DNA of 64,000 bases, taken from IMG/VR virus record IMGVR_UViG_3300000553_000012, positions 1 through 64,000 of that record; one strand, 5' to 3'. The DNA is from a virus. The position numbers and the translations under genes are program-made. The notes under the pieces were generated by a model that was not told where the DNA came from, did not search any database, and saw only the letters and a program-made list of their open reading frames with translations. Position 1 is the first letter of the stretch, and every line of letters begins with the position of its first letter. Shown here one piece after another: positions 45,094-59,910 of the stretch.

Positions 45094-45460
45094 GATTAAC
45101 TCCAGTCACCATTTTTCTTAAAGCATTAATATTGTCTTCAACACCTTTTTGATTTTCTTTTTTATATTTTGTTTTAAAAACTGGAGGATTATCTATACTG
45201 GGTTTAATTCCAGCCGTGCTATTTGTTGGAGCTCCAGAAGACATACCTGCGCCAGGCGCTCCAGCTGCCGGCGCCGCGCCATCTTCCTGAAGTCCGGCAT
45301 GTTTAAGTGCAGACTTCTTAAAATCTGCACCAAAAAACTTTAATTTTTTCCCATTAGATGCTTTCCAGCCTTGGTCACCATTTGGAGTAGTATATGGTTT
45401 TACGTAAGGTTTGCCTTGTACTTCTGTAATATAATTTTGAATTTCCTTAAACGTTTTCAT
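45086..45460 (-). CDS. Putative internal head protein
   Basis: Starts MKTFKEIQNYITE (capsid-targeting-like); L-E-D...APTNS motif. Confidence 0.65.
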   Translation of the reverse strand: MKTFKEIQNYITEVQGKPYVKPYTTPNGDQGWKASNGKKLKFFGADFKKSALKHAGLQEDGAAPAAGAPGAGMSSGAPTNSTAGIKPSIDNPPVFKTKYKKENQKGVEDNINALRKMVTGVNLG

Positions 45461-45858
45461 CAGCAATGCCACCGGCGTAAAGACATCGCTTTGCGCGTTG
45501 GTCTACCCTTTTCATCTTTCATTGGGCCTGGCATACCACCCATTCTAGCACAAAATGATTTTCTACGTTTAGCTGCTTTACTGCCGGGTTTTAGTTTACT
45601 TGGAGGAGTAGTGACTGCCGTATGTATGCCAAAGTGTTTAGCACCTTTACGAGTAAGTCCAGCACCAGATTCAGTAGAACGATAGTATCCTTTAGAGTCT
45701 GCACCACGTTCAAGCAGAGCATCTTCTTTGACTGGTACACAATTCGGAACTTCTTTACCGTCTTTCTTTTTCTTACCAATCATTTTATACCCTTTCCAGC
45801 ATGGATCGGGCTCTTTCATTTTTTTGTTTTCATTTATAAAAGAAGAAAATCGTTTCAT
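45460..45858 (-). CDS. Putative internal head protein (DUF6321-like)
   Basis: MKRFSSFINE; CWKGY...VPNCVP; RRKSFCARM-GM-GPMKDEKGRPTRKA-SLR-W-C. Confidence 0.75.
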   Translation of the reverse strand: MKRFSSFINENKKMKEPDPCWKGYKMIGKKKKDGKEVPNCVPVKEDALLERGADSKGYYRSTESGAGLTRKGAKHFGIHTAVTTPPSKLKPGSKAAKRRKSFCARMGGMPGPMKDEKGRPTRKAMSLRRWHC

Positions 45859-51431: not shown

Positions 51432-51875
51432 TTAAATTTTATTTTTAATGGTGGATCTAAGCATCCAAGAATGTTTTTTGTGAATATCGGTTCTGTCTTG
51501 TAAAAAATTACTGACACCAATTTCACCAACTTTTTCTGCTTCATTATACGCTTTTCTTAAAGATATTATTACTTTTTCATTATCATCTAATAATTGACCG
51601 GCCATTGACACTCCATCGGGAATAGTTGTAGCATCTGAAATTGTAGTCAATTCGGAAAATCTACTAAATGATCCGGGAGCATATTCATCTAATGATCTAA
51701 TATGTTCTGCCACTGCATCTGTGGCTTCCCAAACTTCATCATAGATTTTATTAAATAGCTTATGATATTCGTAGAAGTCTGCACCCTCTACATTCCAGTG
51801 ATAATTATGAGTTTTTAAATAAAATGCAAATGTATCAGCCAAAACAACTTTTAATGCATCAGTTAGTTTGCTCAT
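51432..51875 (-). CDS. dps: Dps / ferritin-like DNA protection protein
   Basis: HNYHWNVEG--F---H-LF--IY-E-----D--AE-IR-L, H-K--WML. Confidence 0.95.
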   Translation of the reverse strand: MSKLTDALKVVLADTFAFYLKTHNYHWNVEGADFYEYHKLFNKIYDEVWEATDAVAEHIRSLDEYAPGSFSRFSELTTISDATTIPDGVSMAGQLLDDNEKVIISLRKAYNEAEKVGEIGVSNFLQDRTDIHKKHSWMLRSTIKNKI

Positions 51876-52764
51876 TAGGATCTCCTTTTATATAATTTCC
51901 ACTCATATTACGAATAACAGAACCATCTTTTTGAGAAACCCAGCCAATGATAGTATATCCCCGTTCTTTCCAATCTGGAGCTTGTGATATCAAAGATTTA
52001 TTATATATTACAACAAATTGTTTTATACCACTTCTATGATAGTATTTATTTGATAAAATATAAGCACGATCATTTGGATCTTGTTGTTGAGAAGCCATAT
52101 GTTCTGCGGCTTTATATGCTTCTAATTTATTATTATGCATTAATCCCGGATTTTTCAAAATATCTTGTTCTTGGCCGGGGGAACCGGCAGGAATTGCATT
52201 AACCGAAGAATCTTCTTTTAATACGGAAATAAATCGAGAACTTATTACTGACCAATCTATAATTTTATAAATGTTTTTTAGATATTCTTTTTTATCGGCC
52301 CGATAATCTAAAGCCCAGGCGTGTTCCCACCAATCAATCAAAAGCATAATCTTCATGCCCGGATGATATTCGTGATTATGAATTACATGAATTTTACAAG
52401 AATCATCAAGATAAATCCAACCAGACCCTTGAATTTTCATAGCTTCTTCTTCAATTTTATCTTGAAGATTTGCAAAAGAACCATATATTGCTTCTATTTT
52501 ATTTTTTACAGTCCCTGTAAAGTTTGATTTATTCGGTTCACAGAATTGACTAAAATATAAATTATGAAGAATAGCCCCCCCAAAATTAAAGTCTTTATCG
52601 CCTTCATTTTTATTATACCTTTCAACATACTTAGATGCTAGACCACGATAATGATAATCTATGGTATCTTTACTCATAACGGGTTCCAAGTCAAAATCTT
52701 GATATCTCAATTTTTTTTGAACTAGTTTTATTTTTTGTTCTGTAAATGATCCAAAATTTTTCAT
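51859..52764 (-). CDS. sod: Fe/Mn superoxide dismutase with capsid-targeting-like N-terminus and ~115-aa C-terminal extension
   Basis: LEP-MS--TIDYHY, GGAILHN-YF, GSGW, DWWEHAW-LDY; start MKNFGSFTE (52764). Confidence 0.85.
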   Translation of the reverse strand: MKNFGSFTEQKIKLVQKKLRYQDFDLEPVMSKDTIDYHYRGLASKYVERYNKNEGDKDFNFGGAILHNLYFSQFCEPNKSNFTGTVKNKIEAIYGSFANLQDKIEEEAMKIQGSGWIYLDDSCKIHVIHNHEYHPGMKIMLLIDWWEHAWALDYRADKKEYLKNIYKIIDWSVISSRFISVLKEDSSVNAIPAGSPGQEQDILKNPGLMHNNKLEAYKAAEHMASQQQDPNDRAYILSNKYYHRSGIKQFVVIYNKSLISQAPDWKERGYTIIGWVSQKDGSVIRNMSGNYIKGDPNEQTN

Positions 52765-54641
52765 TATAATTCTTCTATGAAATTCCAAGAACAAACAACG
52801 TTAGCGGTTCCTCCAATACTGCCCGGCAAGTTTTGAATACAAAGAGTTAATGTGGCAGGATTTCCATTTATATCAGAACCCAGATTGTATGTTCCGGGTA
52901 TACCATCAAATGTTGTTGATCCTGCGCCAGAAGCTGTTAATCCAGATAATATAGTCAATCCGCCGGTTATTGTAGCAGTATTACTCCAAGTCCAATATCG
53001 ACTAGACCTACCAGTATTTGCATTAATTAATGCAGAATTTCCATTATAGGCATAAGTTCCATTAACATTTGCATTATATACTATAGTGTATAAAAATGTA
53101 TCTGCTGTAGCATTTTTTCCTTGATTATTTTGATCTATAATTGTAAATTCTCCAGGAGAAATATCAGAACCTATCCAAGGAGAACCTGCTCTAAGCCCGA
53201 TAGTCAAAACAGGCGTTAATGTAGTACCAGGAATATATCCAGAAACATTGTATGCTGTTGTAGGAGAAGGATTACTTGACAATTCCGCGTCTGATTGAAA
53301 AGCAATTCCTGACATATTAAATACTGGTGTTGTTGTGGTAAATGAACCGGTAGATCCATTTAATATTTCACGTCTTAATGGAAGACTATTATCAGTAATA
53401 AATGTAGTATTACCTATAAGTGAAGGAGAAGAGTAACTTTGAATATGGACAATTTGTGGTCCAATTGGTGTTCCTAGACCAAATCTAACTCTTCCAGTTC
53501 TTCCTCCAATTAAATCAAACCAAAAAGTATAATATTTGTTCAATCCAGTAGTAAAGATATTCATACCAGATGGTCCTGTACCATCTAATTTATCTTGATT
53601 AAAGCTATTAGCATATACTCTATCTTCAACAATAGAACCATTTGCCACTTGACGCCTTACAACTACTGCTAAAGTATTTGCTGATGTGTTTCCTTGTTCC
53701 CAATATATTCCATTATTAATATCAAAAAGTCCAGTTCTACGAATAACACCAGATTCTCCAGCAGTAACTTCATAGTTTACTGTAGTATAAAGAGTATGTG
53801 ATGTTCCTGGTATAATTTTATATCTATTATATGTTTGTTTATATGCATACCCACCAGCAGTATTACCACTCGTCATTTGTATTTCTGATGTATTGGCAAG
53901 GAATATACTATTAGAATTAGTTCCATTCAGTATTTGTGACCACCTGTATAGTATATCATCATCAACTACAGGAACGAACCAATTCTGACTACTAGTAGTA
54001 GATATTCTTAATTTTGATAGCGCGTCTGTGGACCACGTAGGCGCCTGTTGAGTATATACATAGTTTGTTGTATTTGATATAACATCAACAGGTATTGGAG
54101 CCGAATTACTTACGGGTATTGTATTAGCAAAATACAATAAACTGTTTACTGAATTTGGAAAATTATTAATCGCAACAGGTAATGCTTCGGCAGCAGTTAT
54201 ACTATCGCCATTGCTTTGATATATTGATATTTGATTAGAAGTTTGTATAAAAACATTGCCTATAACTTCAGTAGTAAAAGGACTGAATGTAGTAAATAAA
54301 GGATTAACATTGTTAATAGATGAGCCATCACTATTAAAAATGAGAACATTAGATGTACTTGGAAAATTATTAATCGCAACAGGTAATGCTTCGGCAGCAG
54401 TTATATTATCGCCATTGCTTTGGTGTATACTTACATTAGATGCTGTGGTGACATTGACATTGCCACTGATAGAGATAGTATTATTACCAATATCTACAGG
54501 AAGTCTAGATGAAGCATTAATAGCTGAACCATTACTATTAAAAATAACAACATTACCAGTAATTGGAAGCGGTTCTGTATTGCTAATAGAATTTGTATTA
54601 CTATTAAAAATAGAAACAGAATTTGTAAATACATATGACAT
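52764..54641 (-). CDS. Virion structural protein
   Basis: N-terminal LPV/NNFP repeats; DA--KLR-S, KQT----K--PG, R-GLFD--NGIYWE, QDKLDGTGPSG, GRVRFG. Confidence 0.7.
   Translation of the reverse strand: MSYVFTNSVSIFNSNTNSISNTEPLPITGNVVIFNSNGSAINASSRLPVDIGNNTISISGNVNVTTASNVSIHQSNGDNITAAEALPVAINNFPSTSNVLIFNSDGSSINNVNPLFTTFSPFTTEVIGNVFIQTSNQISIYQSNGDSITAAEALPVAINNFPNSVNSLLYFANTIPVSNSAPIPVDVISNTTNYVYTQQAPTWSTDALSKLRISTTSSQNWFVPVVDDDILYRWSQILNGTNSNSIFLANTSEIQMTSGNTAGGYAYKQTYNRYKIIPGTSHTLYTTVNYEVTAGESGVIRRTGLFDINNGIYWEQGNTSANTLAVVVRRQVANGSIVEDRVYANSFNQDKLDGTGPSGMNIFTTGLNKYYTFWFDLIGGRTGRVRFGLGTPIGPQIVHIQSYSSPSLIGNTTFITDNSLPLRREILNGSTGSFTTTTPVFNMSGIAFQSDAELSSNPSPTTAYNVSGYIPGTTLTPVLTIGLRAGSPWIGSDISPGEFTIIDQNNQGKNATADTFLYTIVYNANVNGTYAYNGNSALINANTGRSSRYWTWSNTATITGGLTILSGLTASGAGSTTFDGIPGTYNLGSDINGNPATLTLCIQNLPGSIGGTANVVCSWNFIEEL
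54155..54422. repeat. 64-bp near-identical direct repeat (54155-54218, 54359-54422)
   Basis: One mismatch; encodes QSNGD(N/S)ITAAEALPVAINNFP. Confidence 0.9.
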
Positions 54642-55480
54642 TATATAATTCTCCAGCCACTACGATAGATAAATGTCAAACTCATATTATTGATACCCAT
54701 TATTACCGTTGTATTATTATCTATAGAGCCGCCCGCAGGAGCAGTTACAGTTATATTATTTATTGAACAATTTCCACTCTCATCTTTTATTATTATTTGT
54801 AAACCGTTTTTATTTGTTTTTGGTAATGTAATGGTACATGCTGTTGGACAATTAACTCCAATATAATAATCTTTTTTATTGGCTGTATAATCTGTAGTTA
54901 CTAAAACTGTTCTAAGCGTAAGTTCATCAATAGAGCCTGCTCCGCCGCCGCCCATTTGTGAAATGCGTGAAGCAAATTGATGTAAATCCAAAACTGATTT
55001 TTTAAGAAGATCCATTTCTTTGCGAAATGCTGGAGGAACTTCATCTTTTGGTAATTCATCTGCTGGAATTTTATCAATAGATTTACTGATAGCTTCTACT
55101 GATTTACTGACAAAATCATCTGGAAGTTGAGGTTGTTTTTCTACTGGTGTATTTACTGGTTGAGTTATTTGTCTTGTTGTAGAATTTCTTGCATCTACAA
55201 AAGACTCTTCTACAGGAGTATCTTCTTTTATTTCTTTTATTTCTTCTAAATCGAGTATTTCTTGAATAGCTGGTTGTTCAATTACCTTTATGGGTTCATG
55301 ATCAATAACTTTTACAGGTTTAATTCCAAGAAGAGCATTTTCAAAACTTTCTAGTAGTTTTCTTTCTCTTTCTTTTTTTTGTATATTTTTTTCAATTTTT
55401 TCAAATGTAGAATCAGAAACTTCCGGATTACCTAGAAGTCTAGACCAGCTATCTAGAAGTTTCTGTTCTTTTTCATTCAT
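54641..55480 (-). CDS. Structural protein with charged N-terminus, GGGGAG hinge and fibre-tip-like C-terminal domain
   Basis: DYYIGVN-----TITLP...IIIKDESG----NNIT motif. Confidence 0.7.
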   Translation of the reverse strand: MNEKEQKLLDSWSRLLGNPEVSDSTFEKIEKNIQKKERERKLLESFENALLGIKPVKVIDHEPIKVIEQPAIQEILDLEEIKEIKEDTPVEESFVDARNSTTRQITQPVNTPVEKQPQLPDDFVSKSVEAISKSIDKIPADELPKDEVPPAFRKEMDLLKKSVLDLHQFASRISQMGGGGAGSIDELTLRTVLVTTDYTANKKDYYIGVNCPTACTITLPKTNKNGLQIIIKDESGNCSINNITVTAPAGGSIDNNTTVIMGINNMSLTFIYRSGWRII

Positions 55481-57141
55481 TAGTGGCCCGAACTTCCACT
55501 TTTACCTGGTGGTAACATATTAATTGTTCCATCTGCCATTCTAATAGGAACAAGAGATGAGAATACTTTTTTACGTTTACCAGACGTACCTTCTGGTACA
55601 GATAATTCAGTTACAACATTATCATCATATTCTATTTCATTATTCAAACGCATACCTGAACGAGCAGGCCCAAATAATGGTGAAGGTTCTTGAGAAGGTG
55701 GATTATTTTGAAATCTTTTTATAAGTTTATCTTTTAATCTTTGTCTCTGAGGAGACTTTGGATCTTTTGGTGAAGTACTAATAGCAGATGAATATGCAGA
55801 AAGCATTGTTCTTCGACTAAGTTCATCAATATTTTCAACTTCTTCTTTTACGATAGAAAGATATTTTAATCCACTGTGGGGTTCATTATGTAAGGATCTT
55901 TGAAGTTTAGCCAAAGCATCGTGTTTATTTGGTGATCTAATATAATGATGAACGGTTTCACGTTCTTCTGTTTCTGGATTATATGTATTAGATTTTAATT
56001 TATGAAGCGGCCATTGTAAGTTTGATCGGCGCTCATCTGTTCCAACTTTTTCTTTTTGTATTTTTTTTATAACTCTTTGCATGGCGCCCTTTGCTTTTGC
56101 TTTCATTGGACTGCCTTTGGCGCCTTCCTCAATATCGTGAGGCTTTACTATTTTAGAATTCATTTTCTTTTTTCCTTTTGCTTTTTCTGGAACAGTTATT
56201 AAATTATCCATTTTATCATATATTGGAAATCCATCTCCGGCAGCACCTCCGGTATCACCTCCACCAGTAGGTTCAGTGAACCCGCTCTCTCTGACATCTT
56301 TAAATTTCTTTTTTAATTTATAATTTTTAGAATCAGGATTTTTTGATAAAATATAATTTTTTCCTCCATCTTGGCGGCCGCCATCTACTAAATCTGCTCC
56401 ACCCCATCCGCCCGACGTACCTTCTCCGCCGATACCCTCTTCATCCACATAGGTTTTTACGATCTTCATGGCTTTACGTCTCTGAAGTTGTTTTTTATTA
56501 TCTTCGGGTTCTACAGTCTTATCATAACCGATTGGTTTATCTTTTGCGCTTTTTCTATCAAAAGGAACGTTGTAACGAACCGATTCATATGGATTATCTG
56601 TTACTTGAGTAGTATTGCCTGCGCCAGAACCCGATTTATTGCCAAATGTAGCATTCATTCCCATTATTTGCTTATCCTTAAAATTTGGCGCCTTTTTATA
56701 CTTCTTTGGTTTGGTCTCTTCAAACTGATTTTTAGATCCGGCATTTTGAGGATTTTGAGGTTGAGCGGGTCTCGTTCTAGCATTATTAGCGTACTGTATA
56801 CTCTGATTGTGTAGTTGACCAGCATGTATTTCTTGTTTATTATGCGCTGTTGTAATTTTTGCCCTTTGTGCTGCAGCTTCTGCTGTTCTCTTGGCTGAAG
56901 CTTGTACGGCTGCTGCTGCTAACTTAACGACCTTGGCGCTGTTTTTTGCCGCCTGTGATGCTTTCTGAATAGAAGCTTTTTGATAAGCTACCGCTTCTGG
57001 TGGAGTAGACACTTCTGGTTTACTTCTAAATCCAGGAGCATTTCCAGTCCTAAAACTCGTCTTAATGGGTTTATTAGTCTTAGGAATGCTAGTAATAGCG
57101 GCTGAAGTCTTAGAAGAAGTGGGTTTGCTTGAAGATTCCAT
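55480..57141 (-). CDS. Large basic low-complexity protein, putative protease-processed internal protein
   Basis: Repeated (I/V/L)-x-E sites (YVDEE, DIEE, IVKEE, IDELS, VTELS). Confidence 0.6.
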   Translation of the reverse strand: MESSSKPTSSKTSAAITSIPKTNKPIKTSFRTGNAPGFRSKPEVSTPPEAVAYQKASIQKASQAAKNSAKVVKLAAAAVQASAKRTAEAAAQRAKITTAHNKQEIHAGQLHNQSIQYANNARTRPAQPQNPQNAGSKNQFEETKPKKYKKAPNFKDKQIMGMNATFGNKSGSGAGNTTQVTDNPYESVRYNVPFDRKSAKDKPIGYDKTVEPEDNKKQLQRRKAMKIVKTYVDEEGIGGEGTSGGWGGADLVDGGRQDGGKNYILSKNPDSKNYKLKKKFKDVRESGFTEPTGGGDTGGAAGDGFPIYDKMDNLITVPEKAKGKKKMNSKIVKPHDIEEGAKGSPMKAKAKGAMQRVIKKIQKEKVGTDERRSNLQWPLHKLKSNTYNPETEERETVHHYIRSPNKHDALAKLQRSLHNEPHSGLKYLSIVKEEVENIDELSRRTMLSAYSSAISTSPKDPKSPQRQRLKDKLIKRFQNNPPSQEPSPLFGPARSGMRLNNEIEYDDNVVTELSVPEGTSGKRKKVFSSLVPIRMADGTINMLPPGKSGSSGH

Positions 57142-57143
57142 GA

Positions 57144-58727
57144 TTAATCCTTATGTACTTTACATCCAACACGGCCACACTTATCGCAAGGTTTTTCTTT
57201 AGATGGTTTTGGAGGAGCTAATCCAGAACGAACATCATCATACATCTTCTTCACATCGTCTGGTTTCATAGTGCTGGGTGCACCCGCTGCAAAGTTTTCA
57301 TATTTACCGTTTTGTGCATGTAGTCTTTGATTTGAAGCAGATACTCCAGCAGTGCCTTCGGCATCCGGATCTCTTTCCCCTGCTGAATGTAGATTTACTG
57401 ATTTAAAATTATAATACCCATGTGTACCATGCTGGCCATTATATTGATTTATGAGTTTTTCATACTCTGGAATGCGATCAGATCCAGCAACCATATGTAA
57501 GTCTGTAACACCGTTTTCATGAAGTCTAGAAAGTTGATGTAATAGGGTTGGATGATCTTTGTCTGCTACCTGAGTAACGACATCTGGAAAAGCTTTCTTA
57601 GCGTGTTCTTCTTTTTGTTCTGGAGTAAGAGGATTCTTCTTGTTATCATGAGTCCTAGATAAAATCATACTAGAAGTACCGTTATATTTTTTAGCAAGTT
57701 TCTTGACTAGATTATACGCAACTTCATGCCCAGCGTGTGGTGGATTGACTCTACCAAAAAACATCACATGATGCCGACGATGCATATTTGTCGGATCAAC
57801 AGATTCGGCCCATTTTGTAGGAGCAGTAGAAGGAGGAGTAGCCGTTTGTGTGGTTTGATCAGTATGCCCCAAAGCTTTTTTGATAGAATTTCTATCTTCT
57901 TGGTTTTCAAGATTGATATTGGATGGATTTAATTGTGTTGGAGAAAACTGTACAGTCAAATTCCCCGATGAATGTTTTCCTCTAACACGAAAACGTCCCG
58001 TTCCAGTTGCAGGAGGAAGATTAGTTCCTGTTCTATCTTTTTCTTGGGATAATCCTGCTCTATATGTTCCATGTGTTCCAACATGAAGTACGTCTACACC
58101 ATGATCTTTCAAATAGGCATGCATGGGAGATAAATCTGTTTCTTGACTATAAACATTACTTTGCCCGCTCAATGATCTTGTGCCTCTAGTTGGAGGAGGA
58201 ACAGTTTCATTGATGTGGTCTAAAAAAGATTTTCCACTCTCATGATGCGAATTTTCTATTGCCCTAGCAAATTCTGGATGCTGTCTTCTAACATTATCAG
58301 AAATATGCCATTCGCCTTTTTCTGGATCATGGTTTAGCGTAAGTTGTCCAAATGCCGCTCTAGTGCCGCTGTGTTTAACTTCACCATGATACACATTTGG
58401 TTCGTCTTCACCTGCTTTTTCTCTTTTATTGAGAAGTGAAAAATCAATACCTTTGGTAGATCCGGGAGGCTTTTCATCTGAAGATATCATATTATCATTT
58501 TTTAAAACATCATGAAACTTCCCTTCATATGTAATTCCTCGATTTTCTTCATTAAGTATTTTATATGATATAAACTTTGCAAAACTTTCAGTTCTCATTT
58601 GAACGTCAGGATTAACTAGAATTTGATTGGGATGTTCACCAGTCATAGTTCTACCATTATTGATAGCATTACTTTGACCCTTAGCAGCGTTAAGTCGCTT
58701 CATAATTTTGTCGAGAAAATCTCCCAT
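57144..58727 (-). CDS. Fusion: N-terminal PD-(D/E)xK-like domain plus HxGH cytidylyl/nucleotidyltransferase
   Basis: FFGRVNPPHAGH, KNPL----K, MVAGSDR, SAGERDPDA-G--G-SAS; N-half G--YE...IDF...GEVK. Confidence 0.8.
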   Translation of the reverse strand: MGDFLDKIMKRLNAAKGQSNAINNGRTMTGEHPNQILVNPDVQMRTESFAKFISYKILNEENRGITYEGKFHDVLKNDNMISSDEKPPGSTKGIDFSLLNKREKAGEDEPNVYHGEVKHSGTRAAFGQLTLNHDPEKGEWHISDNVRRQHPEFARAIENSHHESGKSFLDHINETVPPPTRGTRSLSGQSNVYSQETDLSPMHAYLKDHGVDVLHVGTHGTYRAGLSQEKDRTGTNLPPATGTGRFRVRGKHSSGNLTVQFSPTQLNPSNINLENQEDRNSIKKALGHTDQTTQTATPPSTAPTKWAESVDPTNMHRRHHVMFFGRVNPPHAGHEVAYNLVKKLAKKYNGTSSMILSRTHDNKKNPLTPEQKEEHAKKAFPDVVTQVADKDHPTLLHQLSRLHENGVTDLHMVAGSDRIPEYEKLINQYNGQHGTHGYYNFKSVNLHSAGERDPDAEGTAGVSASNQRLHAQNGKYENFAAGAPSTMKPDDVKKMYDDVRSGLAPPKPSKEKPCDKCGRVGCKVHKD

Positions 58728-59875
58728 TAGACTTTAGCTCCTAGTGTCTTTGATGCTCTAAGTACCGCTGAGCGGGCCCTATTTGCTGCCGAAAATCCCT
58801 TGCGATCTACAATCTTTAAACCACCCGCGACAAATCCTTCTGGGCCAGTTTCTTCTCCGTTAATCGCATGGCCATATCCACCATGGGCAGTCTTTGCTAA
58901 TGCTTTAGAAAGCAAATTGGTTGCTTCTTGAACATGACCATGGATTTTAAATGATTTGTCAAATGCCTTTTTATTTTTATTTACATGTGCTAAAGCAGCA
59001 TCTCTTTCAGCGGCTTTGACATCTTTTGTTTTTTGTGTTTTTACAGAATCGATTCGTTTTTGATGATGCTTATTTAAATGATTAATATATCCTTCAGTTG
59101 TTGGAGTTTCTCCACTAGTAACAGTAGAATTGATATATGATCTAAGAGTATCTTCGTGTCCTACATGATGATCATGAGTATGATTATTCATGAGTTTTTG
59201 AGCCTGATTCAAATGATTTAAAACCCGGCGTTTCATTACAGGATCAATATTATGCTGTTCATCATGAGATACTAGATGACTTACAAGATGAACATCAGGA
59301 TGCTCTCCAAACTCAGAAAGGTCCGTAACAGGATGAGCTTCCCTGTTCGGACCCGTAAGTTCTGAATGAATAACCGTACTGACTTTAGATTGTTGAAGTT
59401 TCTTACCCTCTTTGGTGTTAGTCGGTACAGAATATTCAATTGTATTTGGTGTATGACTTATTCTTCCATTAGAGATAGTCCTTGTAGATGGATCGCTCAT
59501 ATATCCGCCTTGCCATTCTCCTTCACGTTTAGGAAGAACTTTAGGAAGATGCTCTAGAAGAAGTTTTAATGGGTGTGCTAAGTAAGGTTTATGACCATGT
59601 TGTTTATCAATGTCTTCTGGACTAAAATTGTATTGAGCACCAGCGCCCTTATACTTTACACCAACTCTGCCATCTTTATCTCGCATGACTTGATAAGACA
59701 GCTTATCATCAATTTTACGCGAAATAGGAGTAGAACTTTCGGTTGCACCCTTAAGAGTATCTATAGCATGTTGAGCAGCATCGTGGCCATCAAATGTTCT
59801 ATCGGCCGGGTGTTCAATATGCTGTATGCCACCTGCGGGTGATCCTTCAATCAAAAAAAACTTGAATGTAAGCAT
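58727..59875 (-). CDS. DUF6267-like protein with ATP-dependent ligase-type motifs
   Basis: HIEHP-D, KIDD (KxDG-like), PNTI-Y, PEGFV, KIVDR--FS-AN; starts MLTFKFFLIE. Confidence 0.75.
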   Translation of the reverse strand: MLTFKFFLIEGSPAGGIQHIEHPADRTFDGHDAAQHAIDTLKGATESSTPISRKIDDKLSYQVMRDKDGRVGVKYKGAGAQYNFSPEDIDKQHGHKPYLAHPLKLLLEHLPKVLPKREGEWQGGYMSDPSTRTISNGRISHTPNTIEYSVPTNTKEGKKLQQSKVSTVIHSELTGPNREAHPVTDLSEFGEHPDVHLVSHLVSHDEQHNIDPVMKRRVLNHLNQAQKLMNNHTHDHHVGHEDTLRSYINSTVTSGETPTTEGYINHLNKHHQKRIDSVKTQKTKDVKAAERDAALAHVNKNKKAFDKSFKIHGHVQEATNLLSKALAKTAHGGYGHAINGEETGPEGFVAGGLKIVDRKGFSAANRARSAVLRASKTLGAKV

Positions 59876-59879
59876 GATT

Positions 59880-59910
59880 ATACCTTATTTAAGAATATAA
59901 GGTATTTATA
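59880..59910 (-). promoter_or_regulatory. Late promoter TATAAATA overlapping an RBS-sequestering hairpin
   Basis: ATACCTTAT-N8-ATAAGGTAT stem covers the AAGGT Shine-Dalgarno of 59875. Confidence 0.7.

Follow-up and report, generated by a model that had tools for sequence, protein, structure and literature searches.

ATP-dependent RNA ligases without an OB domain are represented by NgrRnl (Rnl5, 5cot), the Trl1 ligase domain (9r3w, 6n0t), T. brucei REL1 (1xdn), T4 Rnl1 (9do4) and Rnl2 (2hvq, 1s68). In T4 Pnkp plus Rnl1, bacterial Pnkp/Hen1 and LigD (ligase, polymerase and phosphoesterase), a ligase-fold enzyme is linked or fused with a polynucleotide kinase (PNK)-type kinase and a nuclease or esterase. 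Phage T4 also loads its head with the internal proteins IPI, IPII, IPIII and Alt by means of a ten-residue tag, which is sufficient for loading and in which residues 4 and 7 serve targeting and residues 8 and 10 cleavage (PMC9026906). Here, we analysed a 64,000-nucleotide stretch of viral DNA (hereafter referred to as the window; positions 1 to 64,000 of IMG/VR record IMGVR_UViG_3300000553_000012), in which a three-gene locus on the minus strand resembles each of these systems in part. The record is a 96-kb fragment judged to be 57% complete, and the presence of T4-type baseplate wedge and tube genes, a primase and NrdA identifies a T4-like myovirus as the source of the window. The three genes, P1 to P3, and the signal preceding them are as follows:

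58727..59875, minus strand: P1, 382 aa; DUF6267 protein with the predicted fold of a covalent nucleotidyltransferase of the ligase superfamily (RNA-ligase-like)
57144..58727, minus strand: P2, 527 aa; leader, nuclease domain, adenylyltransferase domain and Cys/His knuckle
55480..57141, minus strand: P3, 553 aa; basic, low-complexity partner protein
59903..59910, minus strand: TATAAATA, a box resembling a T4-type late promoter, 27 nt upstream of the P1 ATG

We put at about 0.45 the probability that these genes form a late operon of capsid cargo enzymes, amounting to an injected kit that cuts, heals and seals nucleic-acid ends. The system would belong to known kinds, the ligase superfamily and T4-type capsid cargo. 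The P1 stop and the P2 start share one base (TAATG at 58727) and P3 starts 2 nt past the P2 stop; the pair of coupled minus-strand genes reported in the first-pass annotation (P1 and P2) therefore exists as two overlapping open reading frames (ORFs). The same annotation placed the pair at the head of a late operon, and the TATAAATA box, directly after the stop of the gene upstream of P1, agrees with that placement. However, the octamer is at chance level in this AT-rich window (18 observed against 17 expected from shuffles), so that the late-promoter call is a matter of position. As a separate observation, 14 of the 18 octamers lie on the minus strand and several stand just upstream of structural genes (e.g. 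5901, 23162, 24009, 50161 and 59903). A blastn search with the P1-P2 locus against 50,697 phage records gave no match.

P1 falls in the Pfam family DUF6267 (PF19782; E 2.7e-42, 145.9 bits against a cut-off of 27, profile positions 2-371 of 376). The literature yielded no paper on this family, in keeping with the label "uncharacterised" given to the system at first pass. An exhaustive search yielded 718 representative DUF6267 relatives, and an ESM Atlas search with the P1 family returned DUF6267 clusters only, all of them viral. Conservation in P1 was counted in a 75-member alignment of the family, and the elements discussed below are located as follows:

59846..59875, minus strand: P1 residues 1-10, MLTFKFFLIE, tag-like N-terminus, capsid-targeting-like, ending in L-I-E
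59705..59716, minus strand: P1 motif I, K54-I-D-D57, with K54 as the presumed nucleotidyl-lysine; family consensus KxDG
58889..59266, minus strand: P1 residues 204-329, five-helix insert between motifs IIIa and IV, delimited from the secondary structure of the model
58814..58840, minus strand: P1 motifs IV and V, E346-G-F-V349 ... K354-I-V-D-R358, delimited from alignment conservation

Residues H22, K54, E346 and G347 are invariant (75/75), and D56 (74/75), K354 (74/75), R358 (71/75), Q122, N144, Y148 and H170 are nearly so; the ligase-like motifs I (KIDD), IV (EGFV) and V (K) picked out at first pass are thus present in P1. The family consensus reads KxDG ... QGDxM ... PEGxV ... K.V.R, and because motif I is KxDG in this consensus, the KIDD of P1 can be taken as a variant of a true KxDG. 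Position 57 is a glycine in 58 of the 75 sequences and an aspartate in 15. Motif III corresponds to Q122-G123-[D/G]124, and the two positions are coupled: 57 sequences have G57 with D124, 15 have D57 with G124 (the clade of the window), and none has both acids or neither. This exchange, which may reflect one or two evolutionary events only, argues for two neighbouring active-site positions that supply a single carboxylate, and for motifs I and III sharing one active site. This swap of an acid between the two motifs is a new addition from this window. An additional HxxH (H19 and H22) is conserved in the N-terminal part of P1.

The AlphaFold (AF2) model of P1 (predicted local distance difference test, pLDDT, 93.6; predicted template modelling score, pTM, 0.90; residues 1-12 disordered) comprises a nucleotidyltransferase core, the five-helix insert and two short C-terminal helices, and lacks an OB domain. 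In a VIA-align comparison with about 48,000 representatives of the PDB, ranks 1 to 21 were all occupied by ligase-superfamily enzymes (Z 8.7-5.6). The best matches were RNA ligases, namely NgrRnl (Z 8.7, 185 residues aligned), Trl1 (7.6 and 7.3) and REL1 (7.3), followed by Rnl1 (7.2), Rnl2 (7.0) and the archaeal Rnl3 (6.9), with DNA ligases ranked below them (6.9-5.6). The ligase alignments span about 185 residues and bypass the helical block 204-329. Foldseek placed LigIV, Lig1, Lig3, Rnl2 and a capping enzyme at the top, with weak scores (best E 5e-3, probability 0.93-0.94), and a Foldseek search of the BFVD viral models recovered a phage RNA ligase among the matches outside the DUF6267 family. 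Sequence searches of PDB entries with P1, P2 and the DUF6267 profile (phmmer and hmmsearch) returned nothing meaningful, and hhalign of the DUF6267 profile with T4 Rnl2 gave a probability of 0.15%, the sole aligned segment (..PEGFV / ..AEGYVL) being non-significant. The uniformity of the ligase matches and the ordered conserved motifs, rather than the Z values by themselves, make the assignment of the P1 model to the ligase-superfamily nucleotidyltransferase fold solid, as anticipated at first pass. A role for P1 as a DNA ligase or capping enzyme was rejected, as the OB-fold domain is absent from the model.

P1 thus shares with the OB-less RNA ligases the fold of the nucleotidyltransferase domain (Z 8.7-6.8, 174-210 residues aligned), the absence of an OB domain, a helical accessory module and the order of the motifs (lysine motif I, acidic motif III, EG motif IV and lysine motif V). 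It differs from them in having no detectable sequence similarity, in the location of the helical module, which lies between motifs IIIa and IV and not after motif V, and in its N-terminal HxxH and capsid-targeting tag. Its family also has a glutamine in motif III (QGD) in place of the usual acidic/Gly/Glu of RNA ligases, and in the clade of the window the aspartate has moved to motif I (KIDD).

This resemblance bears on an alternative in which the locus encodes an injected RNA-repair kit, similar to T4 Pnkp plus Rnl1 but preloaded in the capsid: the ligase-like enzyme and the PNK-like kinase of related phages would reseal tRNA or mRNA cut by anticodon nucleases or defence RNases, and the adenylyltransferase and nuclease would trim or mark RNA ends. 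The position of OB-less RNA ligases at the top of the P1 ranking (NgrRnl, Z 8.7, to Rnl2, 7.0) and the phage RNA ligase recovered from BFVD agree with it, as does the match of the relatives' kinase to AAA_33/Zeta_toxin, AAA_33 being the Pfam family to which P-loop kinases of the polynucleotide-kinase type belong; Trl1 and T4 repair likewise combine a ligase with a kinase. However, the gap in Z to the DNA ligases (6.9-5.8) is of only 1-2 units or so, nearly a tie by the standard of the tool, the module showed no phosphoesterase able to heal 2',3'-cyclic phosphates, the nuclease domain is similar to an enzyme that restricts DNA, and the window has no kinase. We consider this alternative unlikely, at less than half the weight of the capsid cargo kit.

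The AF2 model of P2 (pLDDT 82.6) has two well-folded domains joined by disordered linkers. Its parts are the following:

58548..58727, minus strand: P2 residues 1-60, leader with conserved MGxFLDKIxKR...TMTG..PN..INPD, ending in the internal tag-like ESFAKFISYKILNE
57858..58547, minus strand: P2 residues 61-290, PD-(D/E)xK restriction-endonuclease-like domain with E68, D95 and E116-x-K118
57213..57791, minus strand: P2 residues 313-505, HxGH adenylyltransferase-type domain with H331-A-G-H334 and S463-x4-R468
57150..57188, minus strand: P2 residues 514-526, Cys/His knuckle CDKCGRVGCKVH, seen in the sequence

The leader has a pLDDT below 50 at residues 16-60 and many invariant positions in residues 1-52 (alignment A1), and it was found only once in the 96-kb record; this long leader with an internal tag is a further new addition from this window. 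In the nuclease domain, the motifs read Y67-E68, I94-D95-F96 and E116-V-K118, and E68, D95, E116 and K118 are invariant in 13/13 homologues. E68 lies in helix 63-77, D95 one residue before strand 96-100, and E116 and K118 in strand 111-118. The closest structure was R.HhaI (6uke; VIA-align Z 11.9, 178 of 258 residues aligned, root-mean-square deviation 3.5; Foldseek E 6.8e-4, probability 0.98), with which the domain shares the arrangement E...D...ExK on helix-strand-strand. It differs from R.HhaI in its 14% identity, in the absence of an adjacent methyltransferase from the operon and in its capsid tag.

A nuclease of this type could also serve an offensive take-over cargo, with the endonuclease cutting host DNA or RNA on entry and the two nucleotidyltransferases nucleotidylating host proteins or nucleic-acid ends, comparable to the ADP-ribosylation of host proteins by T4 Alt. 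The R.HhaI-like fold with intact E-D-ExK, and the conserved catalytic residues of all three domains, are compatible with such a role, for which T4 provides precedents in injected enzymes (Alt) and injected anti-restriction proteins (PMC9026906, PMC12373910). On the other hand, the phage would have to protect its own genome from a free endonuclease packed alongside it, and linkage with a PNK-type kinase and a Pol-beta-type nucleotidyltransferase fits repair better. Moreover, we know of no ligase-fold enzymes that modify proteins other than themselves. We regard offensive cargo as quite improbable, more so than RNA repair.

Within the second P2 domain, G333 and H334 are invariant in alignment A1 and nearly so in alignment A3, and S463, Q467 and R468 are invariant in A1. 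VIA-align gave Z 13.7 for the NadD-like 3h05, 12.9 for NMNAT (2h29, 1f9a), 12.8 for NadM, 12.2 for PPAT (4nah), 11.2 for FADS and 9.0 for GCT; Foldseek returned NadD and PPAT with a probability of 1.00. The structural ranking does not split NMNAT from PPAT or FADS, the Z values being within 1.5-2.5 of one another. Like NadD, NMNAT, NadM, NadR and PPAT, the domain combines a Rossmann-type HxGH fold and a helical subdomain at the C-terminus (Z 13.7-12.2, 149-174 residues aligned), and it keeps the GxxxPxHxGH and SxxxxR of NMNAT/PPAT-type enzymes. In contrast to these enzymes, with which its identity is about 9-17%, it is fused here to a nuclease and elsewhere to a kinase, DUF6267 or P3. Its PHROG matches, phrog_3041 and phrog_395, are both called "cytidyltransferase" (CTase); the threshold of Pfam CTP_transf_like is not reached by P2 and is reached by fused relatives. 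With both folds recovered by VIA-align and Foldseek and the motifs in place, the first-pass description of P2 as a PD-(D/E)xK-like domain joined to an HxGH nucleotidyltransferase stands. The identification of P2 as a NadR-type bifunctional enzyme was rejected, as P2 has no kinase domain, and so was that of its adenylyltransferase as a glycerol-3-phosphate cytidylyltransferase, given the poorer structural match and the capsid context. The CDKCGRVGCKVH knuckle is common to three relatives (P0122, P0126 and P0144) and absent from most others.

These matches also raise the possibility that the cargo supplies or restores nicotinamide adenine dinucleotide (NAD+), with an injected adenylyltransferase acting on nicotinamide mononucleotide (NMN) or its nicotinate counterpart (NaMN), NadR-like when combined with the kinase of relatives, to counter NAD-depleting defences, and with the ligase-like enzyme using NAD+. 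The top domain matches are NadD, NMNAT, NadM and NadR (Z 13.7-10.7), a homologue in S-CREM1 is annotated as a "bifunctional NadR-like protein", and the order NMNAT plus kinase mimics NadR. Nevertheless, PPAT (Z 12.2) and FAD synthetase (11.2) score nearly as high, and the kinase matches Zeta_toxin/AAA_33 and, weakly, AAA_17/AAA_18, with no NadR-type ribosylnicotinamide-kinase family among the matches. NAD+ supply accounts for neither the nuclease nor the ligase-fold enzyme as a constant neighbour, and neither Nampt nor any other NAD salvage gene was seen alongside in the loci listed. It therefore appears improbable, ranking behind RNA repair and slightly ahead of the offensive role.

P3 has an isoelectric point (pI) of 9.9, a low-complexity sequence and a sharply conserved C-terminus, VFSSLVPIRMADGTI..LPPGKSGSSG. 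Searches of Pfam, PHROG and cultured phages (tblastn) gave no match to P3, and its similarity to the S-SZBM1_139 virion protein is non-significant. A P3 homologue is fused behind the leader and adenylyltransferase in protein P0129 (E 6e-30 over 300 aa; 78% over the last 37 aa), and this link of P3 to the adenylyltransferase, through fusion elsewhere, is another new addition from this window.

The adenylyltransferase gene gave tblastn matches in 557 phage records; T4-like cyanophages make up most of them, and HTVC008M, Melnitz and several jumbo phages are also included. DUF6267 adjoins this gene in S-PM2, Melnitz, HTVC008M, S-SZBM1, S-WAM1, S-8S5x and C48C1, and fusions of DUF6267 with CTP_transf_like occur in many proteins and in both orders. 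The recurrence of the gene pair in T4-like phages, claimed at first pass, is therefore confirmed for neighbours and fusions alike. Hundreds of adenylyltransferase proteins are fused to a Zeta_toxin/AAA_33 P-loop kinase, and in HTVC008M the P-loop kinase (gp129) is a separate gene between gp127 (DUF6267) and gp130 (CTase). One DUF6267 protein is fused to a Pol-beta-type nucleotidyltransferase and another to LysM. In the S-PM2 RefSeq entry (NC_006820.1, 103037-104222), DUF6267 is split over two genes, with profile positions 1-157 in S-PM2p141 and 156-376 at the N-terminal end of the "cytidyltransferase" S-PM2p142, and the corresponding fusion protein in BFVD has 591 aa, which points to a frameshift or a sequencing difference between the records.

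A scan of IMG/VR with a single stand-alone nuclease protein as the query found no loci, and the same scan with an alignment as the query found 20. The nuclease neighbours DUF6267 and the adenylyltransferase(-kinase) in 14 of these 20 loci; it is fused as in the window in two of the 14 (L011 and L012) and encoded by a stand-alone, tagged gene in the other 12. The gene orders observed were nuclease-DUF6267-CTase, DUF6267-nuclease-CTase-kinase and nuclease-DUF6267-CTase-kinase. L011 and L012 repeat the full order of the window: DenV-like gene, DUF6267, leader-nuclease-CTase, P3, fibre, virion protein, superoxide dismutase (SOD) and Dps. Given this proximity in 14/20 loci, the presence of the nuclease in P2 is not a fusion accident; the R.HhaI-like nuclease is a recurrent member of the module, newly recognised here, that happens to be fused in this phage. 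The module has up to five linked activities, and the window holds three of its genes.

The first-pass annotation attributed capsid-targeting-like motifs to both P1 and P2. The motif is clear at the N-terminus of P1, which, like T4 IPI, IPII, IPIII and Alt, has a ten-residue tag with aromatic residues at positions 4 and 7, an I/L at 8 and a glutamate at 10 (the N-termini of T4 IPII and IPIII read MKTYQEFIAE). Despite the disorder of this segment in the model, 70/75 family members retain E10. In P2, in contrast, the tag is not N-terminal; it is internal, at residues 47-60, behind a conserved pre-sequence of 47 aa, and the [IL]xE site (L-N-E in P2) is kept in P2 homologues at the boundary between the disordered segment and the nuclease fold. 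Among the distinct ORFs of the related loci, an N-terminal pattern M..[FYWL]..[FYWLIM]..E was counted on 30/35 module ORFs and on 8/314 others (Fisher p 7e-31, a value that overstates independence, the sequences being related); the eight tagged non-module ORFs include several SOD or DUF6321 proteins from these clusters. The adenylyltransferase has been detected in two cyanophages by virion mass spectrometry (MS), as S-SZBM1_140 (PMC9146016) and as ORF154 of S-CREM2 (PMC10665884). S-SZBM1_140 is a homologue of the C-terminal domain of P2 (38% identity, E 1e-31). From the tag statistics and these published proteomes of relatives, we infer that P1 and P2 are packaged in this phage, which upholds the earlier idea of a packaged module; the tags, of the type used for head loading in T4, suggest that P1 to P3 are injected with the DNA.

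The same data weigh on the view that the genes are neither cargo nor a system, being instead cytoplasmic auxiliary metabolic genes, such as a sugar- or glycerol-phosphate cytidylyltransferase for envelope precursors, or catalytically inactive proteins with a structural or scaffold role. The names used in databases (e.g. "cytidyltransferase"), the listing of the adenylyltransferase among auxiliary metabolic genes (PMC9146016) and a PA5oct homologue without an MS tag are in line with this view. However, nearly all the module ORFs are tagged, the protein was detected in the virions of two phages, and the locus has a late promoter-like box and a structural-gene context. In addition, GCT-type cytidylyltransferases match worse (Z 9.0) than adenylyltransferases, and the invariant catalytic residues argue against dead proteins. 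Of the explanations considered, this is by far the least probable.

As capsid cargo, the module resembles the T4 internal proteins in its late expression, its basic proteins and the diversity of cargo behind a constant tag, with Alt as the precedent for an injected enzyme. T4 internal proteins are, however, small non-enzymatic inhibitors, whereas nucleic-acid enzymes are predicted here, P2 adds its pre-sequence of 47 aa, and the cargo status is deduced from the genes. The combination of a ligase-fold enzyme, a PNK-type kinase and a nuclease links the module to T4 Pnkp plus Rnl1, Pnkp/Hen1 and LigD, and the Pol-beta-type nucleotidyltransferase of some relatives is a further likeness to end-healing and sealing systems. 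The module differs from these systems in that its components are non-orthologous, in its HxGH adenylyltransferase, which none of them has, and in being apparently delivered pre-made in the virion.

The functions proposed at first pass, namely adenylating or ligating ends, making an NAD-like dinucleotide and countering anticodon nucleases or NAD depletion, are one of several possible readings of these genes. According to the capsid cargo reading, P1 would be a catalytic core from a new branch of the ligase/capping superfamily that lacks the OB domain, and would most likely form a Lys54-nucleoside monophosphate (NMP) adduct and pass the NMP to a polynucleotide 5'-phosphate end, leading to sealing or capping. 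P2 would be cut from its leader at ..ILNE(60), its nuclease domain acting as a Mg-dependent restriction-type endonuclease and its adenylyltransferase domain forming an A(5')pp(5')X linkage, or reversing it, in the manner of NMNAT and PPAT; P3 would be a basic companion. T4-type tags would direct the three proteins into the prohead, where the prohead protease would trim them after the glutamate; injected along with the DNA, the kit would act at the moment of entry. Relatives would add a PNK/zeta-type kinase and sometimes a Pol-beta-type nucleotidyltransferase. Possible roles of the adenylyltransferase are the supply of a cofactor (an NAD-like donor), the formation of a 5'-App intermediate or its reversal.

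As the target, we favour breaks in the phage genome as it enters the cell, with RNA cut by host defences a close second. This preference follows from the predicted co-packaging, from a nuclease fold of the DNA-endonuclease type, from the presence of a tagged SOD and of Dps in the cluster, and from the basic character of proteins that would be loaded with the DNA (pI 9.3 for P1, 9.2 for the adenylyltransferase domain of P2, and that of P3 given above). The presence of SOD and Dps in the same late cluster fits a theme of guarding packaged DNA. A more specific form of the proposal, in which the preloaded kit of aquatic T4-like phages excises, heals and reseals damaged sites or breaks made by the host before phage gene expression and the adenylyltransferase supplies or recycles the ligase cofactor or 5'-App, appears to us doubtful, although less so than any of the alternatives described above. 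If correct, it would establish preloaded repair of nucleic acids as a new class of injected phage function, and the new ligase family would have an adenylation mechanism that involves two enzymes.

Several observations weigh against this reading. The main unexplained point is that a normal ligase needs no separate adenylyltransferase, so that the most conserved partner of P1 has no evident part in sealing. The kinase is absent from this window, and AAA_33 gave a single signal in the 96-kb record, a P-loop match of 17 bits at another place. The records of the jumbo phages RaK2 and PA5oct show an adenylyltransferase that is small and stand-alone but lack DUF6267, and the PA5oct protein is listed without an MS tag. 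SSZBM1_141, the DUF6267 protein encoded upstream of S-SZBM1_140, is not in the list of the S-SZBM1 virion proteome (PMC9146016). A protease of the T4 gp21 type (PF03420) was not found in the 57%-complete record, the control for this search being uninformative. The ligase Z values of 5.8-8.7 lie in a range in which unrelated folds can turn up, and the P1 model is nearer to RNA than to DNA ligases, which weakens the preference for DNA repair.

The phages carrying the adenylyltransferase (T4-like cyanophages, the pelagiphage HTVC008M and the Melnitz phages of Methylophilales) infect abundant ocean bacteria. Their gene has so far been labelled "cytidyltransferase" or "cytitidyltransferase", or counted as an auxiliary metabolic gene, with a virion match and no function assigned. 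It now forms part of a capsid-tagged, linked set with a hidden ligase-superfamily protein (DUF6267), a restriction-type nuclease and a PNK-type kinase, which provides a candidate injected function. If the kit does repair the genome or host-cut RNA, it would bear on the infectivity of phages exposed to sunlight and on the first minutes of the contest between phage and defence. It would also bring to light a new ligase family, possibly useful as a reagent.

Histidine content is 7.9% in P1 and 6.1% in P2 (7.4% in the adenylyltransferase domain), with the residues scattered through the folds, and 2.0% in P3. The gene directly upstream of P1 (59911-60447, minus strand) matches phrog_624 and is DenV-like, with a borderline hit to Pfam Pyr_excise (23.6 against 23 bits). 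In T4, denV adjoins ipII and ipIII, and we considered whether the upstream gene mirrors this denV-ipII-ipIII arrangement; the likeness is weak and positional, with no similarity to T4 DenV by BLAST, and it was set aside.

In the same late cluster (51432-52794, minus strand), the gene for an Fe/Mn SOD (Sod_Fe_C, E 1.4e-20) overlaps a gene for a Dps-type ferritin (Ferritin, E 3e-25). The SOD of the window has a tag-like internal start, MKNFGSFTE, and those of L011 and L012 start with MKNFTSFVEE; together, these features suggest an antioxidant capsid cargo. A small tagged DUF6321 protein (MKRFSSFINE) is encoded at 45460-45858 (minus strand). Segments similar to it also occur in the adenylyltransferase protein of C48C1, at its C-terminus, and in the virion protein S-SZBM1_139, and PF19846 is precomputed on a CTase-kinase fusion (P0228); the DUF6321 protein is probably another cargo module. 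Finally, locus L017 (7738-9593) has two more tagged ORFs (MLRFKSFIAE and MIRFKQFILE) beside its stand-alone tagged nuclease; they match none of the module queries and may be additional types of cargo.

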